DNA from: a virus
Lineage: Duplodnaviria > Caudoviricetes
Strand: one strand, 5' to 3'
IMG/VR virus record: IMGVR_UViG_3300024254_000011
Span: 1-51,756 of that record
Length of the DNA: 51,756 nucleotides
This document shows, one piece after another, positions 2,814 to 23,474 of this stretch (the stretch's first letter is position 1; every line of letters starts with the position of its first letter). Both the position numbers and the translations under genes were made by a program. The notes beneath the pieces are model-generated. The model was not told the origin of the DNA and did no database searches. It was given only the letters and a program-made list of their open reading frames with translations.

Positions 2814-3116
2814 ATGACTCCCGATCCTAACGTCTATAACTGTATCATTTGTGACAATCCCTTGAGCGAATGGCATGTTACGAACCATATGCCATGTTGC
2901 TCAAAGGATTGCTACACAATGATGAAGTTCTATCGCCAGCGCCGTCATACCTGGACCGATAGACAACGTGGGGGATTAGGCGCACAGAGTAAACAAGGAG
3001 AGAAAAAAGAATGTGTATGTTGTGGGCGAGTATTCGTATCCCGTAATTCAAGACACAGTACCTGCTCACCAACATGCTCAGAGCTTCGTAAGTACGGATA
3101 CAAGATTAATCAATAG
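2814..3116 (+). CDS. Double zinc-finger protein
   Basis: Two CxxC...CSxxC modules; AGGAG RBS. Confidence 0.7.
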   Translation: MTPDPNVYNCIICDNPLSEWHVTNHMPCCSKDCYTMMKFYRQRRHTWTDRQRGGLGAQSKQGEKKECVCCGRVFVSRNSRHSTCSPTCSELRKYGYKINQ

Positions 3117-9938: not shown

Positions 9939-10126
9939 GGCTTATCCTACAGTTAGGTAAGTATAGAGTAACCGATCGAGAGAACAACCTAATGAAAATC
10001 GCCCTAGGTAGCTCCACCACCATGACCGTTATGCTCCCTGATAACGTTGACGTCAAGGCAGGGGACATACTAACCTTCTACACAGAGGTCTTCTATGCCA
10101 ACCCTAAACCACCACCAATCGAATGA
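9935..10126 (+). CDS. Hypothetical small beta protein
   Basis: ATGA overlap at 9935. Confidence 0.6.
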   Translation: MRLILQLGKYRVTDRENNLMKIALGSSTTMTVMLPDNVDVKAGDILTFYTEVFYANPKPPPIE

Positions 10127-10994
10127 ATACACTAAACTCCTGATCGAAGGAGACTCCGGCAGTGGAAAGACCGGCGCTCTCACGTCTTTGGTTCGAGAAG
10201 GCTTTAAGCTACGAATTCTCGATATGGACAATGGGCTTGAGACTCTCAAGCAGTTTATCCTTAAGGAGTGCCCTGAGAAGATCGAGAACGTTGAGTTCCG
10301 AACACTACGAGATAAGCGTAAGGCTAGTCCGATTGGCGCCATCATTGATGGACAGCCCAGGGCCTTCGTCCAAGCCTTAAACATGCTTGATAGATGGAGG
10401 TATACGAATGAAGATGGAACGACCACTGATCTTGGAGTACCAGCAGAATGGGGACCGGATTGTGTTCTTGTCATCGACTCCCTCACTTTTCTCGCTGATG
10501 CTGCCTTTGATTTCCGCGAACCGCTCACGGCGCAAAGCTCCAAAGGCGGGAAGTATGATATGCGAGCGGTCTACAAAGATGCGCAAGACGCTGTCGAGAA
10601 CGTCTTGGCCCTTCTAACCTCAGAAAGCTTTCGGACCAATGTCATTGTCATTTCACATATTCGGTATGTTGATAACCCTGATGGCACAAAGAAAGGATAC
10701 CCCACAGCCGTTGGATCAGCACTCTCTCCACAGATACCGCGTTACTTTAACAGTGTGGCGCTTTGTCAAACATCAGCCGGTGGAAAGAGAACTATCCAGA
10801 CTACAGCGACAGCAATGATCGACCTCAAGAACCCTAAACCCTTTGCGATGCTCCCTACCTACCCCATCGAAATCGGCTTAGCAGAGTTCTTTAAAGTTCT
10901 TCGTGAACAACCAAAGGAGGTTAAAGGCTATACACCATCGGCCTCGCCAGCCGTCCATAAACCCACACTCAAACCACTCATACGGAGAATATAA
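10095..10994 (+). CDS. P-loop ATPase, AAA_24/Sak4-like recombination protein
   Basis: GDSGSGKT, ILDMDNG, LVIDSLT, VIVISH; lies between the nuclease and SSB genes. Confidence 0.8.
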   Translation: MPTLNHHQSNEYTKLLIEGDSGSGKTGALTSLVREGFKLRILDMDNGLETLKQFILKECPEKIENVEFRTLRDKRKASPIGAIIDGQPRAFVQALNMLDRWRYTNEDGTTTDLGVPAEWGPDCVLVIDSLTFLADAAFDFREPLTAQSSKGGKYDMRAVYKDAQDAVENVLALLTSESFRTNVIVISHIRYVDNPDGTKKGYPTAVGSALSPQIPRYFNSVALCQTSAGGKRTIQTTATAMIDLKNPKPFAMLPTYPIEIGLAEFFKVLREQPKEVKGYTPSASPAVHKPTLKPLIRRI

Positions 10995-11560: not shown

Positions 11561-12571
11561 ATGCAAATCGCAATCATAGGAGAAGCATGGGGTGAGAAAG
11601 AGGAAATCGAAAGGGCACCGTTCGTCGGTCCATCGGGCTATCTTCTCACGAGAATGTTGGATGAAGCTGGAATACAAAGAGCAGACTGCCTACTTACAAA
11701 TGTTTTTAACTTCCGTCCCGATGGTAACAAGATTGAGAGTCTCTGTGGGCCAAAGACGGAAGCTATTAAAGGTTTTCCAAGCCTTGGAAAAGGTAAGTTT
11801 GTGCAGGCGCAGTATATCCCCGAACTAGAAAGGCTAGCCAATGAGATTGTTGAATGTAATCCAAACGTTATCATTGCTCTCGGGAACACTCCTACTTGGG
11901 CTTTACTTGGGACAACTGGGATTTCTAAGATACGTGGAACCACAGCTTGGTCAACCCACACCGTCAGCGGCTACAAGGTGCTTCCCACCTATCACCCAGC
12001 GGCTGTCCTCAGACAGTGGGAATTGCGTCCAACAGTTATCATGGACTTTTTCAAAGCCAAGAGAGAAGCAACCTATCCAGAAGTAAGAAGGTTAGAGAGA
12101 ACCATCTGGATACAACCAACGATAGAGGACCTCTATGACTTTAAAAGAACTCAGATTGAAGGATGCGCAAGACTTGCTGTTGATATTGAAACAGCTGGAA
12201 ACCAAATTACCTGCATTGGGTTTGCTCCCAACCCCCGAGTGGCAATCGTTGTTCCCTTCGTGGACGGAAGAAGATTGGGTAAGAATTTCTGGGGAAATGC
12301 GAGCAGTGAACGTGCAGCTTGGAAATTTGTCAAGGACATTCTGGTGGACAGGTCGATTAGTAAGGTCTTCCAAAACGGACTCTACGATATCGCCTTCATC
12401 TGGAGAGCCACCGGGATAAAGACCTATGGAGCAGAGCATGACACTATGCTTCTTCATCATGCTTTGCAACCTGAGGCGCTGAAAGGATTAGGGTACCTCG
12501 GGTCGGTGTATACGGACGAGGGGAATTGGAAGCAGATGAGAAGGGTAGCGACGATAAAGAGGGACGACTAA
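11561..12571 (+). CDS. Family-4-like uracil-DNA glycosylase fused to the N-terminal part of a DEDD 3'-5' exonuclease (split DNA polymerase subunit)
   Basis: GEAWG, PFVGPSG, TNV, TYHPAAVLR (UDG); VDIET (ExoI), QNGLYD (ExoII), HDTM. Confidence 0.88.
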   Translation: MQIAIIGEAWGEKEEIERAPFVGPSGYLLTRMLDEAGIQRADCLLTNVFNFRPDGNKIESLCGPKTEAIKGFPSLGKGKFVQAQYIPELERLANEIVECNPNVIIALGNTPTWALLGTTGISKIRGTTAWSTHTVSGYKVLPTYHPAAVLRQWELRPTVIMDFFKAKREATYPEVRRLERTIWIQPTIEDLYDFKRTQIEGCARLAVDIETAGNQITCIGFAPNPRVAIVVPFVDGRRLGKNFWGNASSERAAWKFVKDILVDRSISKVFQNGLYDIAFIWRATGIKTYGAEHDTMLLHHALQPEALKGLGYLGSVYTDEGNWKQMRRVATIKRDD

Positions 12572-14058
12572 TGAAGATCATCGAAACCCACAAACTCGAC
12601 CCCTTATCCATCCCTCCAACCGAGAGGGACTGGGTCTATAACGGCTTGGACTGCTGTATCACTTCGGAGGTCCTAGACGTACTTCTCCCTCAATTAGACT
12701 GTCATACCTTAAAAACCTACGCATTTTCTAAATCGCTTCAGGGCCCGGCCTTAGAGATGAGATTGCGCGGGGTGAAGATCGATCGGTTTCGGAAGGCGGA
12801 AGTTATCGAGCATTACTTTCGGAAGCTAGATATGTTGGAGAGAAACCTCGAGCGGCTGGTACTTGAAGGCGTTGGGATGGAGGTCTTCAACTGGCGTAGC
12901 AACGACAACCTAAGGGAGCTCTTCTATGACCGTCTTGCAATTCCAGTTATTAAACGACAAGGGCGACCAACTGTTAACCGAGAGGCTCTTGAACGGCTCG
13001 AGTCCTACCTTATTGCCAAACCTATTGTTACGCATATCAAAGCAATGCGAGAACTTGGCAAGAAAATCTCAATGCTCAAAACCGAGATTGATCCTGACGG
13101 TAGAATGCGAACTGCTTACAACATCGCAGGGACAACTACTGGACGATTCTCTTCTTCCTTTTCTGAGTTCGGAACTGGAACAAATCTCCAGAACATTGAA
13201 GAAATCCTACGCTCTGTATTTATCGCCGATAAAGGAATGAAGATGGCCTATGTCGATGCACAACAAGGAGAGAGCCGTGTGGTTGGAGCTATTGAATGGA
13301 ATTTATTCCAAGATGCAAAGTACCTCGATGCCTGTGAAGGAGGGGACCTACACACTACAGTTGCGAGACTATGCTGGCCTCTTCTTTCTTGGACGGGTAA
13401 CCTTAACAAAGACCGATCCCTTGCAGAGCAGCCATTCTATAGACATTACGATCGACGCTTCATGTGCAAGAAGATTGGCCACGGCTCTAACTACGGTGGT
13501 AGGGCGAGAACACTTTCAAGTCAAGCTAAGGTTGACGTTAGAGTAATAGAAGAGTTCCAGCCGCTATACTTCAAAGCCTTTCCAGCACACAAAAGGTGGC
13601 ATCAACATGTTGAATTCACACTCCGATCTACTGGTAACATCATTAACCTTATGGGCCGCAAGCGGTGGTTTTTTGGTAGGAGAGATGACGACTCAACTCT
13701 TAGGGAGGCTATCGCCTACGACCCACAAGGAAGCCTTGCGGACATACTTAATAATGGGTTGCTTAACGTGTGGCATTGCCGTGATGCAGAACTATTGATG
13801 CAGATACATGACGCTGTACTCGTACAGTATCCAGAAGAGAGAGAAGATGAAATCATCCCGAAAATCCTCGAGCAGTTAAAGTACCCAATCCAACTAAATC
13901 ATAACCGGGATTTCCTAATCCCTTATGACTGCAAGGTAGGTTGGAATTGGGGGAAGTATGATGCTAAAGAAAATCCAGACGGACTTAAAACCTATATCCC
14001 GGGTGACAAACGGAAGCGCTCTAAGGAAATGTCAATCTTGGATAGAGAGTTTTATTGA
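12571..14058 (+). CDS. polA: Family A DNA polymerase (ExoIII plus polymerase domain)
   Basis: YNGLD (ExoIII), TTTGRFSS, NLQNI, DAQQGESR (motif A), RFMCKKIGHGSNYG (B), QIHDA (C); TAATG start. Confidence 0.93.
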   Translation: MKIIETHKLDPLSIPPTERDWVYNGLDCCITSEVLDVLLPQLDCHTLKTYAFSKSLQGPALEMRLRGVKIDRFRKAEVIEHYFRKLDMLERNLERLVLEGVGMEVFNWRSNDNLRELFYDRLAIPVIKRQGRPTVNREALERLESYLIAKPIVTHIKAMRELGKKISMLKTEIDPDGRMRTAYNIAGTTTGRFSSSFSEFGTGTNLQNIEEILRSVFIADKGMKMAYVDAQQGESRVVGAIEWNLFQDAKYLDACEGGDLHTTVARLCWPLLSWTGNLNKDRSLAEQPFYRHYDRRFMCKKIGHGSNYGGRARTLSSQAKVDVRVIEEFQPLYFKAFPAHKRWHQHVEFTLRSTGNIINLMGRKRWFFGRRDDDSTLREAIAYDPQGSLADILNNGLLNVWHCRDAELLMQIHDAVLVQYPEEREDEIIPKILEQLKYPIQLNHNRDFLIPYDCKVGWNWGKYDAKENPDGLKTYIPGDKRKRSKEMSILDREFY

Positions 14059-15199
14059 GCATAAAGCTAGCTTGGAGTCAGCGCCGATATTCCGCCGGTG
14101 GGCGGCAATAGCGACGATCAGCGCTGTCTTAGAGCAGAAGGTCCATGTGTGGACTAACGGTCCGCTCTTCCCTAACCTGTACGTCTTCTTAGTAGGTCAT
14201 CCGGGGGTAGGGAAGACGAGGACTATTATGGCTGCTAGGAGCTTCGTCAACGACCTAGCTGACTTTCATATAGCGCCGACCTCGATGACAATGGCGGCGC
14301 TGGTTGATTGTATGCTTGTCTCTAAGCGGTCTATTATGGACTCGGAGATGAAGCCGTTCGACTTCCATTCCTTATCTATCTACGCCGATGAGCTATCAGC
14401 CTTTATGCACAAGTTCGACGACGAATTGATCGGCGGGCTTACAACCTTCTACGACGTGGTAGTTCCTTACGGCCAACACCGTCGAGGGAAGGATATCAAG
14501 ATCAAGATAAAGAACCCACAGCTTAACATCCTCTGTGGCACTACCCCCTCCAACCTGATGAAGTTCATGCCAGAAGGTGCGTGGGATCAAGGGCTCACTT
14601 CCAGAGTTATCATGGTGTTCTCTGACGAAAGGATTATAGGAGATATCTTTGCCCCATTCGACCGTGCTATACCCAAGGATATGCTGTCTGATATAGCGAA
14701 AATCCATGCCCTCAACGGCGTCTTCGTAGTAACAGAAGAGTTCAAAGCCGCTATCAACGCCTGGAGATTAGGAGGGCAGCTACCAGTTCCAACGCATCCA
14801 AAGCTTCTTCATTACAACACCAGACGGTTAACCCATCTATTCAAACTCTCAATGGTATCCTCAGCCGATAAAGGCGATAGCCTTATCCTAACAATGGAAG
14901 ACTTCAACCGCGCAATGTCTTGGCTAATCGAAGCCGAGTCGTTTATGCCGGAGATATTTAAAGCTGGCGGTGTGCTTGCGGATGCAAAGGCGATGGACGA
15001 AATCTACCACTTCGTACTCGTTGGTGGTGGAGAGAAAGGTCTTGGAGAACATCAGATTATGAACTTCGCCAAAGAGCGGCTCCCTATCCATAGCTGTTAC
15101 AACGCGATTAAGCTTATGGAAGGCAGTGGCCTTATCAAAGCAATAGGTGTTGATAAGGCCACTGGGTTGCGTAGGTTTGTGGCTCTGCCGAAGCATTAA
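13958..15199 (+). CDS. DUF3987/YfjI-like P-loop ATPase, putative replicative helicase (start uncertain, possibly GTG 14003)
   Basis: PNLYVFLVGHPGVGKT, IYADE, LNILCGTTP, GLTSR. Confidence 0.75.
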   Translation: MMLKKIQTDLKPISRVTNGSALRKCQSWIESFIEHKASLESAPIFRRWAAIATISAVLEQKVHVWTNGPLFPNLYVFLVGHPGVGKTRTIMAARSFVNDLADFHIAPTSMTMAALVDCMLVSKRSIMDSEMKPFDFHSLSIYADELSAFMHKFDDELIGGLTTFYDVVVPYGQHRRGKDIKIKIKNPQLNILCGTTPSNLMKFMPEGAWDQGLTSRVIMVFSDERIIGDIFAPFDRAIPKDMLSDIAKIHALNGVFVVTEEFKAAINAWRLGGQLPVPTHPKLLHYNTRRLTHLFKLSMVSSADKGDSLILTMEDFNRAMSWLIEAESFMPEIFKAGGVLADAKAMDEIYHFVLVGGGEKGLGEHQIMNFAKERLPIHSCYNAIKLMEGSGLIKAIGVDKATGLRRFVALPKH

Positions 15200-16954: not shown

Positions 16955-17481
16955 ACGATTGTCCTTCCCTGATCTAGCATTGCTAGAGCGTTTGTTTTTA
17001 CATGAGTTACGCGGTTGAGCCAGCCTTTGAGGAACCGAGGCTGGCCTAGTGAACGGTAGTACTTTTCCTTTACTCTAGAGTAGTCCTGAATCAACTGGAT
17101 AGGGTCCGCATCTTTGATAGCCTGTCTAGTGATGGGCCCAACCCTCCCATCGTCATCAACGCCAAGGGCCCTTTGGAGAAGGATAGTCGCACGATTAGGC
17201 CCTGCGTTGACGGCCATGTCGAAGTAGAGGTAGTCCACGCCGTTAGGGAGAAGGTCGCAAGGGGTGCCCCAGTATTCATCGTGGTAGATGGTCCTTACCT
17301 CAGCGTCAGAAGCCGTCCATACGTCTCTAGTTGGAAGCCCCTGCTCCTTCCGCCAAGCGTTGTATTCCCTTTGCGTTATCCCTCGAGAGGTTCTCCCTCC
17401 ATGATCGAGTGGATCGTCGTCGTTGCCTCCTTCATCTATAAGGAGGTAATGGAGCGCTTTGTCGAAGTTTTCTTTCATCAC
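16951..17481 (-). CDS. Endolysin, glycoside hydrolase family 108 with peptidoglycan-binding C-terminus
   Basis: EGG..DDP.D.GG.T..GIT, FDMAVNAG, DGRVGPIT, FLKGWLNR. Confidence 0.93.
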   Translation of the reverse strand: MMKENFDKALHYLLIDEGGNDDDPLDHGGRTSRGITQREYNAWRKEQGLPTRDVWTASDAEVRTIYHDEYWGTPCDLLPNGVDYLYFDMAVNAGPNRATILLQRALGVDDDGRVGPITRQAIKDADPIQLIQDYSRVKEKYYRSLGQPRFLKGWLNRVTHVKTNALAMLDQGRTIV

Positions 17482-20400
17482 TTCACCACATGTTTCTTTG
17501 TTGTGCCGCGGGTTAGACCTTGGAACCAGTCTTCAAAGGTCCTAGGATGGGCTTGTTCATTCATTAGATCAATGCCAAAGTGAGCTAGGTTCCCAAGCTC
17601 CTTAGGTGCCTTACCTGTTACTTGACCAAAGGTAGTGATAGCGTCTCCAACGGTCTTACCTGCATACTGCGGTGACACCGCTCGTTCCCCTCTTCTAAGA
17701 TCACGGATGAGTTGCGCTGTGTCGTGTAGTGGAGAAGAGAGAAGCCCTACCCCAGGGTCTTGCCCTGTGGTCCAAGCATGCATTAGATCACGGAGATAGA
17801 GGATCGAAGCACCTAGACCGTGAAGGGTACCGGTAAGGATATGTGATCCCCAACCTCTACGATCGTCGGTAGTGATGCCTGTAACAAGTTCTTCAACTGC
17901 TATAGGTACTAGAACATGGGCTATTACCCGGCCGAGGATATCCGGAATGTTTCCAGCGGCCCTTCTTACCCCTTCGTTCCGACCAAGCTTATAGGTGTCG
18001 TTAAGAACATGGGCTAGCTCAATCCTGCGCTGCATTACAGTACCGAAGAACCCATAGATGGAGGTTAGCCAACCGTGAAGAGGACCACCACCACGCACTA
18101 GCGCAGGTTGGTTGGTAATGGCTGTAGAACCGTGGGCCCTACGAACAGCACGTTCGGCTAGTTCAATGGCCTGACCATGGGTATCGCCTTGTTCTATAGC
18201 TTCTCGATACGCCGCAAGCCAAGTAGGACGGACGGATAGCATATCTGACTGCGCTACTAGCCATGAACCTGCTTCGATAATCCGTTCTCGGGTAGTGCCC
18301 TTACCATAGAGATAGGCATGCTCTCCTTGAATAGTATCCTGCCAATGCCTTCTTCTTCTTCCAACCTCTTCACTCCATTGATCAACGAACTTCTTATTAA
18401 GTTCACCGAACTCTTCACTCCTACCGTAGAGGCCGGTCACTGATCTAAGGAACTGCTCAGCGAAGTTCTTTACTCCCACTTCCCTTGCGCTGAGGACGAG
18501 AGCAGTAGGTCCATGCTTCAGCGCAGTATAGATATTGAGGCCGATATAGGAACTGATAACGTTCTGTCTAAGGAACTCAGACAGGGCGCTGGCTTCATGG
18601 TAAGCCTTTGAAGGTATACCTTCAGCGCCAGCAATACCTTTGAGATAGCTGTTTAATCCATCAGTATAGTGGGCACCATACCGCTTGGTGATTTCATTCC
18701 TCAACCCTTCATCACGGAATATCTTCTCTACCTCAAGGATAGGCCCACGGAAGACGGTGTCATGAATGATCTGCGTTAAGCGAATAGGTATCATATCAGG
18801 GTTCAGATCAAGGGGATAGATAGCGCCAGTACGAGCCTTGGTATAGCCGTTAGCGGTTCTAGCATGAGAGTTGTCAGTGCTATCGTAGACCGACCCACCC
18901 TTCTGCCTAACGCTCTGACCAGATATCTTATTCCCTTCGGCGTCGATATAGGCCTCGACCTTAGGATGCTTGATCAAAGGATGGTACCAGCCGTCGTACT
19001 CTTTCTGTGTTCCATCCTTAAAGGTAACTGTGAAAGGCTTTAGCTCTATCTTCTCAGGCGCTACACCGTATACCTTCGCATACTCCCGCTGCGCTCCTTC
19101 AAAGGCCTTCTTAAACATTGCCCCCATCTTCTCAGCACGGTCCCACATCTCCTTCGTAGAGTTCTGGAAGAGCCACTGCTTCAACCCTTCCGGATCACGT
19201 CCATAGCCTCTGGCTAAGACGTTCCAGTTGCTTTCATTCCCGGCGTTATGGATCATTACCATAACGTTCCCAACGGTGAAGTTACGCATTGGAGTGCCGG
19301 TAGGATTGGTCTTCTCATCAATGCTTAATGGGTCGATGAAGGGGGAGTCTACCAGCTTGTTCTGATCCTTGAGTTCTCCTATCTCCCGGTATATCTTAGC
19401 ATACTCTCTTTGTATCTTTGCCTTCTCATTAGCAGCGCCAGCGAGTGGATAGACAACGAACCTATTAAAGACCCCTCTAGGATCATCACGATCGAAGCGG
19501 TTCATCAGAGTCTCTAGGTTAGTGCTTGCCGCTAGGAAGGTCTTTGGTAGCTGCAACGTCTTCTGCATAAGTGTAGGAGTAGCAACAGCCTGTGGCTTTA
19601 ACGAGAAGGTCCTAACCTTATCCTTCATCTGATCGAGAAGGTCTTGCCGAGCGATAGAAGCTTGCTGCGTTGTTACCTTTAACTCCGCCTTCCCCATCTT
19701 GCTCAGCGCAGTCAGCGCCATATGCACCTGCTTGAGCTCTTCAAACGTCATCTTCTCAACCGGCTTCGACCACTTCTGGCCATCAGCGCCGACGGACATA
19801 AGGAAGTCAGGGATAGGCATATCGTCCATGCCCATACGAGAGTTGAAGCGAGAGTTGACGAAGTCTCTAAGGTCCTCATAGCCTGAACGGGCTATCTCAG
19901 TAGCAAGGTCAGCAGGGGTACGAGCTACAGGCTTGCCAATGCGAAGAAGGATATCGTGAATGAAGTTGGTGTACTCTTGCGCTGTACCAGAGACTAGCTT
20001 ACCGGGGCTACCGCGTTTGCTATAGGTCTCGGCGATGCTATCAACCTTACTCAGTACGTTCTTCTCTGCCTTGACAGCTAGTTGAGCCTTGGTTATTGCG
20101 GTGAATTGCGCTTGCTTCTCCTTGAAAGCACCGACGAAGTCTCCTTTCAATAGAAGGTCTTCAACCACCTTCCCTGATCTATTAGCCTCCTGCATAAAGG
20201 TCTTGGAGTCAATATCGCCGACATGTATCTTATTGAACTCTTCAGTGATCCAGGACTTAACCTTATCCCTTTCAAACGGAAGTTTAGCGCCAGCCTCTGG
20301 CTTTACTCCAGCCCGTTCAGCTAACGCAAGAATGTCCTCATGAACACTATCAAGGGATGAACGGAACTGTCGATCCTGTATCTCCTGAAAGACGTTACCC

Positions 20401-23400
20401 GCTAAGCTTCCGTACTTCTCCTGCATCCTTCTCTCAGTTTCTTTATCGACCATGTAATTGATAAAGTGCTTCCCATATTTATTCAGGTCCTTCTGCATCT
20501 GGTTCAGCATAACCAGCCGGTCGATCATAGCCGTACCGGAATGGAAGCCTAAAGCCCCGGCTAGGTCGTCAGGGTTGCGGGTGTCTCTACGAACGTAATC
20601 AACAGGGAGGCCCTTCCTCTGCTCAGGGGTGAGGTAGCGGGGATCGATCTTCGGAGGCCTACCAGTTTGGCCAAAGAGGGTCCCTGTCCGGAACCATTCA
20701 TTAGCAGCGATATCGGGACGGTTGTAGATATCTTGCTCAACGTCCTTGCGCATAGCGGCTGCATTGTCTTTCCACTCTTTGGATTGCCGCTTTATCTCTT
20801 CCTTGGTTATTCGCTCTTGCTCCGCTGCGTGTTCGGCCTTTAGCTGTTCGTTCATCCGAAGGTTATAGCGCCGATACGTCTGCGGAGAGAGACCGAAGGT
20901 ACCAGGGGTCTTAGCAACGTCGGTGACAGGTCCTTCGAGTTTCTTCTGCTGGGCCGCTTCTTCAGCACTGATTTTGAAGCCAGCTTCCTTTACCTTCCCC
21001 TTAACCCCCGGCTCTTTAAACTCAGGAAACGCAGCATGAAGCTGTTCAAAGCCTTGACTTGCGTGGAGAACAGCATCAAGAACAGTAGGCGTTGGGCGGC
21101 TTCCAATGATCCTCTCTAAGATGCTGGCGATAACTTCTCTGATAGCATCCCAAACGTTCTTTACACCACCCTTCATCTTATAGAACTGTGCAAACTCATT
21201 TGGCAATGGAACGTGAGAGAGGGTAGTTTGTAGGTCCTGATTTGACCAAGCCTCTGCAATGAACTCCCCAACGTGTGTAAAGGCGTAGTCATGGAACTTA
21301 CGTTGCTCAGGTAGGTTCTTAGCCATCCATGTATCAGCGGCGTTCATTAGGTCTGTGAATTGAGCATGGAGTAGCTGATCTGCCATAATCGCACGGTAGG
21401 TAACGGCATGAGTGAGTTCGTGCAATAAGGTATGCGCTGTCCACTCTCTTCCGGAGGTACCGTCGATGGTTCTAGCTGGCATTACCACGGTGTGGGTGAC
21501 TGCATCGTAGAAGGCAGCGCTAGTAGGTCTCTTCTCTGTGAATTCAGCGTCGCCTACGATCTTGACCTCAACGTCACCGGCCAATTCCTTAAGCCGCTTA
21601 GTAAAGAACTTGTTTAGCTCCTTTCCAATAGAGCTAGTCGTATACTCTGGCGTAACCATATCGAGAGCGTCTTTAGCCTTGAAGCTAGCGATCGCTACGA
21701 ACTCGGCCCGATTGGTCTTAAAACCATGTGGGGCAAAGTTAGCCGTAGGAGGGACCAGCGCAATAGGAGAGGAGACAACGTTCATATGGAAGGCGAGGTT
21801 CTCCAGCATATCTGGAGAGGGGTTGCGCAAGGAGATTTTAGCTATTCCTCTTCCCTTACCAGCTTCCACCCTGGCGCCAGATACTCTCATCCCTCCAATA
21901 GTCTCTACGTTAGGGAACTCATTTTTGATTTGAGCTAGGAGGTCCCTTATGACACGAGGTCCAAAGGCATTTGCCACAGCCTCACCGGGTCGGCGGCCAC
22001 CTATCCAGTTTATGTCTAAATGATTATTAATCGTATCCTCATAAACAGATAGACTACCAATGTTCTTACCTCCCTGATCTATAAGATTGAATCTCCTACC
22101 TGGCTGTAGAGCAGCCTCCATATCTGTGAGGTGACTTGTATCTTCAGGCTCTAACTTTAGCTTCTGCATCCTCTCCGCATCAAACAGTGGCTCTGCATGG
22201 ATCGAAGCCCTAATAGCATCAGTAGGCCCATGCCCTGTCTCTAAGACCGGTATCCTCTCCTGATCAGCGGAGTCCTTTACGAAGTCGATATCCTCCTTGC
22301 TCAGCCCACCCTTTCTAACTGTGATGAAATCTTCAAACTCTTTAGCAAGCTCAGGGTCCATCTTCGAGAGCCAATCGGAGAGGGGAACATTGATCTTGCC
22401 ATTGTTAGCTTCTAGTAATGACAGCCTCTCCTTAAGGTCTGGTATCCAACCGAGCTTGCCATCATCAGGTAGTGGGTCCTTTTCTCCATATAGCATCCTG
22501 ATCTTCTGTGCCGAGATACCGATGGTGCCGTTGGTATGCTGATCAAGATACTCTCCAAGCATCTTTGGAGAACGTTCCTTTAACGCAGCGCCATTAACCT
22601 CTTGCTCTGTCTCTTTAAAGTCTTTGAGATTCTTCTCAGCTTCCATGACCTTCAATAGATCGTAGGTAGGAGATATCCCAATAGGCGGCTCTTCACCGTG
22701 TCTAATATACTCCATCAAATGCCTAGCACGAACCTTATCAATCATCTCCTTAGCAGCAGTAACGATCGCTTCCGGCGCTACAGTAGCTCGATGTGGTCCA
22801 CCGCCTATTAGCTCCATCTCCGCCATGCCGGTGAGTTCTCGAGCGAGGGAGATGGCCTGTTGCTCTGTACCACCGGATTGTAGGACAGCCTCTTTAGTAG
22901 CCGCTGAAGCACCTTCAAGGAAGCCAGTCATACCACGGTCTAGGAGTTCGAATGGAACGCCAAGAATGTTCCAAGCAGCGGTACCTGCTCGTTGAATACC
23001 ACCAGCGTCGTAAGCTTCCATACCACCGGGTTGGCGCATGGCCCCAGTGCCGATGCTATAGTCTCGATGCCAGCCCTTGACGAAGCCTTGGATACCTTCA
23101 TTGATAATGGAGGAAGGAGCGCCAATGAGACCACTCTGGCGCATCTTCTGTGTTACAAGATCAAGCTGTCCAAGATCATCGTTGGTGATCTTAGGCGCTA
23201 GGGGTTGGTCGTTAAGGAATTGAGAGAGGTAGGCGTTGTTGCGCAGCAGCTGTCCCGTCAGCGCAGCCTTGTGCTGTTGTTCGAACTTCTCCATATTGCT
23301 ATAAACAACAACAGGATGTGCACCAGTAGCATCAGCTAGCTCCTGCGCTCTCGCCGCCTTCTCAGGATCGTCTTCAAAAGAAGATAGCGCAGCCGCTACA

Positions 23401-23474
23401 GAACGGCGTTGTTCATTCTCAACAAACTGCTGTGGGTCGAAAGGGACTACGTTATCTTCTTCTTCATTGGGCAT
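17478..23474 (-). CDS. Large internal virion/ejection protein with a zincin (HEXXH) domain
   Basis: 1998 aa at the T7 gp16-like position; LLHELTH...EFIAEAWSN. Confidence 0.8.
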   Translation of the reverse strand: MPNEEEDNVVPFDPQQFVENEQRRSVAAALSSFEDDPEKAARAQELADATGAHPVVVYSNMEKFEQQHKAALTGQLLRNNAYLSQFLNDQPLAPKITNDDLGQLDLVTQKMRQSGLIGAPSSIINEGIQGFVKGWHRDYSIGTGAMRQPGGMEAYDAGGIQRAGTAAWNILGVPFELLDRGMTGFLEGASAATKEAVLQSGGTEQQAISLARELTGMAEMELIGGGPHRATVAPEAIVTAAKEMIDKVRARHLMEYIRHGEEPPIGISPTYDLLKVMEAEKNLKDFKETEQEVNGAALKERSPKMLGEYLDQHTNGTIGISAQKIRMLYGEKDPLPDDGKLGWIPDLKERLSLLEANNGKINVPLSDWLSKMDPELAKEFEDFITVRKGGLSKEDIDFVKDSADQERIPVLETGHGPTDAIRASIHAEPLFDAERMQKLKLEPEDTSHLTDMEAALQPGRRFNLIDQGGKNIGSLSVYEDTINNHLDINWIGGRRPGEAVANAFGPRVIRDLLAQIKNEFPNVETIGGMRVSGARVEAGKGRGIAKISLRNPSPDMLENLAFHMNVVSSPIALVPPTANFAPHGFKTNRAEFVAIASFKAKDALDMVTPEYTTSSIGKELNKFFTKRLKELAGDVEVKIVGDAEFTEKRPTSAAFYDAVTHTVVMPARTIDGTSGREWTAHTLLHELTHAVTYRAIMADQLLHAQFTDLMNAADTWMAKNLPEQRKFHDYAFTHVGEFIAEAWSNQDLQTTLSHVPLPNEFAQFYKMKGGVKNVWDAIREVIASILERIIGSRPTPTVLDAVLHASQGFEQLHAAFPEFKEPGVKGKVKEAGFKISAEEAAQQKKLEGPVTDVAKTPGTFGLSPQTYRRYNLRMNEQLKAEHAAEQERITKEEIKRQSKEWKDNAAAMRKDVEQDIYNRPDIAANEWFRTGTLFGQTGRPPKIDPRYLTPEQRKGLPVDYVRRDTRNPDDLAGALGFHSGTAMIDRLVMLNQMQKDLNKYGKHFINYMVDKETERRMQEKYGSLAGNVFQEIQDRQFRSSLDSVHEDILALAERAGVKPEAGAKLPFERDKVKSWITEEFNKIHVGDIDSKTFMQEANRSGKVVEDLLLKGDFVGAFKEKQAQFTAITKAQLAVKAEKNVLSKVDSIAETYSKRGSPGKLVSGTAQEYTNFIHDILLRIGKPVARTPADLATEIARSGYEDLRDFVNSRFNSRMGMDDMPIPDFLMSVGADGQKWSKPVEKMTFEELKQVHMALTALSKMGKAELKVTTQQASIARQDLLDQMKDKVRTFSLKPQAVATPTLMQKTLQLPKTFLAASTNLETLMNRFDRDDPRGVFNRFVVYPLAGAANEKAKIQREYAKIYREIGELKDQNKLVDSPFIDPLSIDEKTNPTGTPMRNFTVGNVMVMIHNAGNESNWNVLARGYGRDPEGLKQWLFQNSTKEMWDRAEKMGAMFKKAFEGAQREYAKVYGVAPEKIELKPFTVTFKDGTQKEYDGWYHPLIKHPKVEAYIDAEGNKISGQSVRQKGGSVYDSTDNSHARTANGYTKARTGAIYPLDLNPDMIPIRLTQIIHDTVFRGPILEVEKIFRDEGLRNEITKRYGAHYTDGLNSYLKGIAGAEGIPSKAYHEASALSEFLRQNVISSYIGLNIYTALKHGPTALVLSAREVGVKNFAEQFLRSVTGLYGRSEEFGELNKKFVDQWSEEVGRRRRHWQDTIQGEHAYLYGKGTTRERIIEAGSWLVAQSDMLSVRPTWLAAYREAIEQGDTHGQAIELAERAVRRAHGSTAITNQPALVRGGGPLHGWLTSIYGFFGTVMQRRIELAHVLNDTYKLGRNEGVRRAAGNIPDILGRVIAHVLVPIAVEELVTGITTDDRRGWGSHILTGTLHGLGASILYLRDLMHAWTTGQDPGVGLLSSPLHDTAQLIRDLRRGERAVSPQYAGKTVGDAITTFGQVTGKAPKELGNLAHFGIDLMNEQAHPRTFEDWFQGLTRGTTKKHVVK

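Follow-up and report, generated by a model that had tools for sequence, protein, structure and literature searches.

A phage family A DNA polymerase with a UDG-like domain, encoded by two adjacent genes that are cut inside the proofreading exonuclease domain

We herein describe a DNA polymerase locus in a window of 51,756 nucleotides (nt), the whole stretch analysed, which corresponds to positions 1 to 51,756 of the IMG/VR virus record IMGVR_UViG_3300024254_000011. The window is a phage-like contig with its replication module on the + strand and its structural genes on the - strand, and the records of two sequencing runs that match it at this locus (X1 and X2) give soil metagenome as the sample type. 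Our comparisons make it highly probable that two open reading frames (ORFs) of this contig, ORF1 and ORF2, encode a replicative family A DNA polymerase (PolA) that is made as two polypeptides assembling into one enzyme. In the enzyme that we propose, subunit 1 would combine a family-4-like uracil-DNA glycosylase (UDG) domain with that portion of the DEDDy 3'-5' exonuclease fold in which ExoI (D208, E210) and ExoII (D276) lie, whereas subunit 2 would start with a short strand and the ExoIII helix (Y23, D27) and run on into the polymerase domain. The ExoIII helix would dock back onto subunit 1, completing the exonuclease fold and its metal site in trans, and the assembled enzyme would have the three-domain architecture of the single-chain UDG-exonuclease-polymerase (UDG-exo-pol) proteins of related phages. 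The locus comprises the following features (aa, amino acids; A2, our alignment of 20 ORF1-homolog sequences):

11561..12571, + strand: ORF1, small subunit, 336 aa; UDG-like domain and first part of the 3'-5' exonuclease domain
11567..12025, + strand: family-4-like UDG domain, ORF1 residues 3-155; Pfam UDG, 71.6 bits (cut-off 24.3)
ORF1 residues 202-313: exonuclease part; Pfam DNA_pol_A_exo1, 23.8 bits (cut-off 23.6)
12182..12193, + strand: ExoI, DIET (ORF1 residues 208-211; D208, E210), invariant in A2 and present in 79/79 related loci
12371..12388, + strand: ExoII, QNGLYD (ORF1 residues 271-276; N272, D276), invariant in A2 and present in 79/79 related loci
12527..12568, + strand: conserved ORF1 C-terminal tail, W-K-x-M-R ... 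T-I-K-R-D-D; the chain always ends at this point
12558..12564, + strand: AGAGGGA, putative Shine-Dalgarno-like sequence for ORF2, within the last codons of ORF1 and 6 nt before the ATG
12569..12573, + strand: TAATG, in which the ORF1 stop TAA (12569-12571) and the ORF2 ATG (12571-12573) have one base in common
12571..14058, + strand: ORF2, large subunit, 495 aa; opens with a strand and the ExoIII helix, followed by the family A polymerase domain
12637..12651, + strand: ExoIII, YNGLD (ORF2 residues 23-27; Y23, D27), invariant in 21 sequences
12817..13953, + strand: DNA_pol_A domain, ORF2 residues 83-461; Pfam, 125.2 bits (cut-off 34.3)

The ORF coordinates, the TAATG overlap and the putative AGAGGGA ribosome-binding site all agree with a preliminary description of the window, and the motif strings quoted there (GEAWG, PFVGPSG and YHPAAVLR for the UDG domain, all located in ORF1; DIET, QNGLYD and YNGLD for the exonuclease) were found where it had placed them. 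The frame of ORF2 is open since 12475, with the ATG at 12571 and the stop at 14058. The one-base overlap, together with the Shine-Dalgarno sequence lying inside ORF1, suggests that translation of the two cistrons would be coupled and that both chains would be synthesized in equimolar amounts. A promoter/terminator scan of the window returned sites no more frequently than in shuffled sequences, and none between ORF1 and ORF2. The domain score, the catalytic residues and the complete DEDDy set of ExoI to ExoIII are those of a family A polymerase, with the Exo motifs spread over two chains. ORF2 indeed supplies ExoIII and the polymerase motifs, as first described: its residues D229, K300 and H413-D414, which we take to be polymerase motifs A, B and C, are invariant in 21 ORF2-homolog sequences. 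Moreover, the two chains cover known polymerase profiles consecutively, ORF1 aligning at 543-800 and ORF2 at 809-1241 of phrog_17 (a DNA polymerase profile), and likewise ORF1 at 265-414 and ORF2 at 462-886 of the E. coli-type Pol I profile (PRK05755).

A nucleotide search of a phage collection with the window gave zero matches, thus relatives are found there only at the protein level. Scanning IMG/VR with a single-protein query returned 5 loci, and with an alignment query 81 loci, 79 of which have both halves, the sequences of L044 and L079 stopping short; duplicate pairs account for 11 of the 79. The cut lies at the same residue in 79/79: ORF1 is aligned up to residue 335/336 in 78 loci and up to residue 333 in L081, while ORF2 is aligned from residue 1 or 2; the two halves invariably neighbour each other on one strand. 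Four contigs from metagenome-assembled genomes (MAGs; L085-L087 and L089) are also cut at this residue, and, among homologs of near-equal length, at least 120 protein clusters with 61-86% identity to ORF1 are all 335-357 aa long. Since the matches among genome contigs are mostly binned metagenome contigs, their host is not reliably given. The closest cultured relative, Caulobacter phage Kuura (41% identity), is cut in the homologous loop; its genes for the UDG-exo protein (369 aa) and the DNA polymerase (560 aa) are separated by two ~100-aa ORFs, for which we found no PHROG family and no Pfam family at a meaningful score. The UDG-exonuclease half of Kuura (Kuura_029; L001:3453-4562) is annotated as a hypothetical protein, and the Kuura genome paper names only 'a DNA polymerase'. 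The order of UDG, exonuclease and polymerase domains is kept, whereas the single polypeptide typical of UDG-PolAs is found neither in the window, nor in any of the 79 IMG/VR relatives, nor in Kuura. Judged from these sequences, the split is fixed in a large clade, composed mostly of soil-metagenome phages together with Kuura, and is old; the preliminary description missed both its age and its clade-wide spread. In L008 (754-876), the ORF2 homolog ends after 41 residues, which could reflect a pseudogene, an error of assembly or yet another interruption. On a 4.7-Mb Actinomycetota MAG contig (L094:3001-6648), the ORF1 homolog runs across three frames and the ORF2 homolog is aligned only from residue 54, so that this looks like a prophage copy in decay.

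Among the 79 loci, the spacing between the ORF1 stop and the ORF2 start varies: 19/79 overlap, 8/79 lie at 0 to +2 nt and 52/79 at 134-1224 nt, distributed as follows:

-4 nt (overlap, ATGA): 12 loci
-1 nt (overlap, as in the window): 7 loci
0 to +2 nt: 8 loci
134-141 nt: 4 loci
151-450 nt: 37 loci
over 450, up to 1224 nt: 11 loci

Relative to ORF1, the frame of ORF2 is -1 in 45, 0 in 18 and +1 in 16 of the loci (n = 79). The distribution of the exonuclease motifs is constant: in 79/79 loci, ORF1 contains ExoI (D-x-E-T) together with ExoII (Q-N-x-x-[YF]-D), while ORF2 contains ExoIII (Y-N-x-x-D), always within its first 45 residues, as the preliminary description had it for the window; in two loci, an extra ExoIII-like string occurs in the ORF1 tail, probably by chance. 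Given that all three motifs are kept in 79/79, selection is acting on a proofreading site whose residues are on two chains. (A pattern search for polymerase motifs A/C matched 52/79, the pattern being too narrow and some ORF2s being cut by contig ends, and its counts are not used.) Both sides of the cut are conserved as protein: in the ORF1 tail, W323, K324, R327, T331 and K333 are invariant in A2 and conservation reaches the chain end, and ORF2 homologs always start with M-K/R-I/V-I. Modelling of the ORF1+ORF2 complex, one of the checks that had been suggested, predicted an interface with an interaction prediction score from aligned errors (ipSAE) of 0.86, as compared with 0.00 for the best of 3 controls; the ipSAE mark is reached by 58/80 solved complexes and by 2/110 mismatched pairs. 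The partner has a predicted local distance difference test score (pLDDT) of at least 87, at least 89% of the contacts are common to the runs, and the number of contacts is 230-248. The stretch of ORF2 that the model packs against ORF1 residues 204-327 comprises residues 1-65 and includes the ExoIII helix; residue 28 of ORF2 is in contact with ORF1 residues 206-208. The model supports binding of ORF1 to ORF2; its weak side is that the chains are halves of a well-known fold, hence the predicted assembly could pass through resemblance to solved PolA structures. With the same-residue split and the motifs of the 79 relatives, a heterodimer that rebuilds the proofreading site, as originally proposed, is the best reading of the locus. 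Comparative rather than experimental evidence gives good support to a polymerase of two chains, both of which are required for its proofreading site.

Single-chain UDG-exo-pol relatives are plentiful: 116/120 of those listed are 750-861 aa long, and among the matches listed they reach at best 41% identity to ORF1. Named ones are Microcystis phage Mel-JY34 and MW202489, with about 35% identity, which are nearer to the present enzyme than the N4-like, SPO1-like and SP15-like polymerases. One single-chain protein (P0154, 1085 aa) contains, just before the conserved N-L-Q-N motif of the polymerase domain, an insertion of ~290 aa that we take, by its typical ends, to resemble an intein. In the tree of the polymerase part, 22 split forms (Kuura included) are separated from 20 single-chain forms across one branch with a support of 99 in the Shimodaira-Hasegawa-like approximate likelihood ratio test (SH-aLRT); our trees are quick maximum-likelihood searches with the root not inferred. 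When MAG contigs were added, L087 and L089 fell within the split clade. Another locus, L093, is cut just before ExoIII, yet it is nested among the single-chain forms, hence at least two changes are needed. In this locus (L093:2962-5640), a 112-aa ORF sits exactly between the halves, overlapping the stop of the first and the start of the second, and matches an HNH endonuclease family of PHROGs (phrog_374, E value 8.5e-34), while a Pfam search of this ORF gave no match. L123 (2243-4639), which shares 61% identity with L093, has its cut in this loop too, with only TAA-ccc-ATG between the halves and GGAGGA upstream; the two loci represent a second split lineage. A survey of the single-chain clade, limited to its best 80 IMG/VR loci, found one ORF in 77, a locus cut by the contig end in 1, and split genes in L123 and L119. 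The latter (L119:1948-4613) is cut elsewhere: a UDG-only ORF of 231 aa comes first, then an HNH_3 ORF of 126 aa (E value 5e-11) and finally an exo-pol ORF of 571 aa that begins just before ExoI, so that the cut falls between the UDG and exonuclease domains. Overall, the loop before ExoIII has been hit, or cut, at least twice.

Small genes lie between the halves in 52/79 loci, and several of them are HNH endonucleases, a feature of the junction that had gone unnoticed in the preliminary description. In a Pfam search of 33 intervening ORFs from the window's clade, 7 matched HNH_3, 2 matched DUF3102 and 24 no family; PHROGs added two more weak HNH matches and some families of unknown function. 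In L089 (4009-4344), the ORF between the halves belongs to DUF7768 (E value 1e-19) and, less strongly, matches nucleoside 2-deoxyribosyltransferase in PHROGs (E value 2e-8); hence, the junction also takes cargo other than endonucleases. As expected for 'genes in pieces', only some of the relatives have an endonuclease gene at the junction while others lack it (for instance, present in L093 and absent in L123). Since HNH ORFs stand at the cuts in L093, in L119 and in the window's clade, free-standing HNH insertion appears to be a recurrent cutter of these polymerase genes. We consider it most likely, on this sequence evidence, that the split of the window's clade arose when a free-standing HNH homing endonuclease gene entered the loop. 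The site of the cut is a surface loop ahead of ExoIII, and HNH genes still dock at the junction; in the window, no inserted gene is present and the cistrons overlap. Several points speak against this origin. The window itself contains no intervening endonuclease gene, and as 24/33 intervening ORFs are without a Pfam family, an insertion origin for the window's clade is circumstantial. A point mutation with restart, as in the cyanopodovirus S-SBP1 (see below), could equally have come first, with the HNH genes arriving later. As for the trees, given that the root was not inferred, 'one fission' stands for a single change without rooting.

The cut could also have been kept for its usefulness rather than merely tolerated, which we regard as unlikely. 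A separate UDG-exonuclease chain could let the phage vary the ratio of editing to polymerase subunits, hence fidelity or uracil handling, and the intervening genes and their own translation signals in 52/79 relatives could contribute to this ratio; alternatively, the junction could serve as a safe harbour where homing endonucleases and small cargo (e.g., the DUF7768 ORF of L089) come and go while the polymerase stays intact. If so, the fragment-complemented proofreading site would serve regulation or enhance evolvability instead of being a frozen accident. However, the detachable subunit and tunable fidelity that the preliminary description had envisaged find no support in the comparative data, nothing in which speaks for regulated association, and the overlap of the cistrons rather suggests coupled, equimolar synthesis.

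That no stable enzyme is formed seems improbable to us. ORF2 would then be a proofreading-deficient polymerase and ORF1 would act apart, as a UDG or a DNA-binding factor, with its exonuclease domain inactive or assembling only transiently, which would allow regulated fidelity. Separate genes permit separate dosage in principle, and other genes are placed in between in 52/79 loci. However, the conservation of ExoI to ExoIII in 79/79 is hard to explain without an assembled site, the modelled interface is large and has the ExoIII helix set in the ORF1 fold, the halves are always neighbouring and on one strand, and PolAs were reported to depend on their exonuclease domain to be stable (Czernecki et al., 2023, PMC10201439).

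A fusion of ORF1 and ORF2 into a single UDG-exo-pol chain by a programmed -1 frameshift near ATA-AAG had been put forward as a further option, and we reject it as very improbable. The frame of ORF2 in the window is indeed -1 to that of ORF1 and open from 12475, an A-AAG lies 11 nt before the stop, and 22/27 abutting junctions in relatives are likewise at -1. However, frames 0 (18/79) and +1 (16/79) also occur, and 134-1224 nt and whole genes separate the halves in 52/79 loci, as well as in Kuura. Moreover, in many abutting junctions the frame of ORF2 is closed, either by a stop immediately before its start (L013, L030, L032, L033, L074 and L080) or by one within 3-6 nt of it (L007, L054, L084, L011, L012 and L036). 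The conservation of the ORF1 tail as protein to its last residue and the constant M-K/R-I/V-I start of ORF2 argue in the same direction.

Two further explanations can practically be set aside. A stop introduced by faulty assembly or sequencing, or by decay of a gene that normally encodes a single-chain polymerase into a pseudogene, would accord with the frequency of single-base indels in metagenome assemblies and with the known single-chain relatives, but two Logan contig sets (X1, depth 22.4; X2, depth 10.9) match 12200-12950 with 0 differences and 0 indels, although these runs may be the source samples and hence perhaps are not independent of the window; the same cut recurs across 79 IMG/VR contigs that were assembled independently, as well as in 4 MAG contigs and one isolate genome, and all catalytic motifs are conserved. 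(Run X3 gave only a short ~92%-identical piece at 12728-12878, which does not span the junction.) Rejoining of the halves by a split intein after translation, or by RNA splicing, has precedents in 'fractured genes' with an endonuclease gene between split-intein halves (PMC2677866) and in the group I introns of SPO1-type phage polymerase genes (per reference titles in PMC2988022). However, the tails past the last shared residue amount to ~12 aa in ORF1 and ~20 aa in ORF2 (33 together), against ~15 in the single-chain linker, and the total of 831 aa falls inside the single-chain range of 750-861 aa, thus there is no space for intein halves. The window has zero sequence between ORF1 and ORF2, and Rfam gave no match in the window or in 8 long-gap loci (at the gathering threshold), nor in L093 3800-4500 (at E values up to 1), in line with the earlier statement that neither intron nor intein is present at the junction.

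The UDG domain of ORF1 aligns to solved family 4 enzymes (E value 7e-23), and G7, E8 (the Glu of GEAWG), N47, H145 (the His of HPAA) and P146 are invariant in A2. ORF1 begins where chain residues 35-51 of the solved family 4 UDGs align, hence it lacks their N-terminal segment; moreover, N-F-R-P stands in ORF1 at the place of K-C-R-P in 1L9G, 1VK2 and 4ZBX. The four Fe-S cysteines of family 4 UDG are therefore not found in ORF1, as already pointed out in the preliminary description; the lacking cysteines are presumably the 4Fe-4S ligands. With the NCBIfam model UDG_fam4 (TIGR00758), ORF1 scored 90.3 bits, under the cut-off of 125.3. In the 68 of 78 loci in which a 'GE..G' pattern was seen (a count that is due to a fixed search slice, A2 being relied on instead), the Pro of motif A (GE-[AG]-P-G) is replaced by W (51), Y (16) or F (1). 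In the phiLo polymerase, the UDG domain removes template uracil ahead of the fork, and E53 and H178 were called catalytic (PMC13697223); the invariant E8 and H145 of ORF1 correspond to these residues. Hence, the UDG domain may be catalytic on uracil, and by analogy with the SP15-like polymerases we infer an activity on template uracil. The replaced Pro of motif A, the absent Fe-S cysteines and the score below the family 4 cut-off tell against such an activity and make it uncertain. Alternatively, the domain may have a structural or processivity role, as was proposed for the UDG domain of N4-like enzymes (PMC10201439). Among the window's 49 ORFs scanned against PHROGs, no thymine-modification families were found, unlike in SP15-type phages.

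The 171-aa exonuclease protein of the cyanopodovirus S-SBP1 (gp15) contains strings that we take to be ExoI, ExoII and, in the form Y-x3-D, ExoIII; its cut thus lies after the whole exonuclease domain. The PolA of S-SBP1-like cyanopodoviruses is split into exo and pol genes and was described as the first such case among PolAs; the split was ascribed to a frameshift with a new start codon, and the complex was modelled as intact-like (Czernecki et al., 2023, PMC10201439). Both systems have a family A polymerase on adjacent exo and pol genes as the result of genuine fission, and both have a predicted complex that superposes on a single-chain relative. They differ in that the cut described here is inside the exonuclease domain, and not at a domain boundary, leaving ExoIII on the polymerase chain, and in that a UDG domain is present here and none in S-SBP1; the two belong to different PolA subfamilies, and the present split is associated with endonuclease genes, an inserted gene not being the cause given for that of S-SBP1. 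The UDG-PolAs of N4-like, SPO1-like and SP15-like phages are single chains (PMC10201439; Missoury et al., 2026, PMC13697223). The present enzyme shares with them the order of family-4-type UDG, 3'-5' exonuclease and polymerase, as well as invariant counterparts of the catalytic Glu and His, whereas it is encoded as two polypeptides, has an aromatic residue in place of the motif A Pro, and has a predicted function. Both split PolAs and UDG-fused PolAs are thus published already, a point that the preliminary description had missed. For a UDG-PolA cut before ExoIII, we found no report in the literature, although the supplementary tables of PMC10201439 and PMC13697223 could hold cases.

The locus also resembles the T4-type genes in pieces, in which an essential replication gene is cut at a critical region and an endonuclease gene lies between the halves in some relatives only. 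The nrdA of Aeh1, cut by mobE, still yields an enzyme that is active; in phage 25, the two split products gp43A/B are purified together and have polymerase activity, gp43A/B being present in 44RR as well (reviewed in PMC2988022). Those cases concern a ribonucleotide reductase and a family B polymerase of myoviruses, whereas the polymerase considered here is of family A, its cut passes through the exonuclease catalytic set, and its reassembly is predicted, in contrast to the experimental reassembly there. Split polymerase genes were also reported for an uncultured cyanophage lineage (bioRxiv 10.1101/325100) and for the OM43 phages MEP401/402, with a small unknown ORF between the halves in MEP401 (PMC10580990). 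These, too, are split phage DNA polymerase genes, but the relevant passages of both sources do not state the split position or a UDG domain.

The clade described here provides a natural example of a DEDDy proofreading exonuclease with its catalytic residues shared out between two polypeptides, and hence an essential replicase would depend on fragment complementation. It extends PolA fission from the domain boundary, as in T7-like cyanophages, to a within-domain cut in the UDG-carrying subfamily. It also offers a plausible origin, since a second lineage displays the likely intermediate, with an HNH gene in the loop. Caulobacter phage Kuura is a culturable model for this system. For annotation pipelines, such loci are a trap: the label given to the small subunit is 'uracil-DNA glycosylase', while its large partner seems to lack an exonuclease, which misleads surveys of replication and fidelity. 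Naturally split polymerases are relevant to enzyme engineering, too.

Two neighbouring genes of the replication module flank the polymerase:

10095..10994, + strand: AAA_24 / Sak4-like ATPase, a member of the replication module
13958..15199, + strand: DUF3987 primase-like protein, whose listed start overlaps the ORF2 end by 101 nt (13958-14058)

Since the DUF3987 family match begins only at residue 27, the true start of this gene is probably further downstream. Away from the polymerase locus, a 100-aa ORF (2814-3116, + strand) shows a weak match to an HNH endonuclease PHROG (E value 7e-6). On the opposite strand, a 1998-aa ORF (17478-23474, - strand) matches only PHROG families of unknown function (phrog_9880, E value 2e-89) and adjoins endolysin and virion protein genes.

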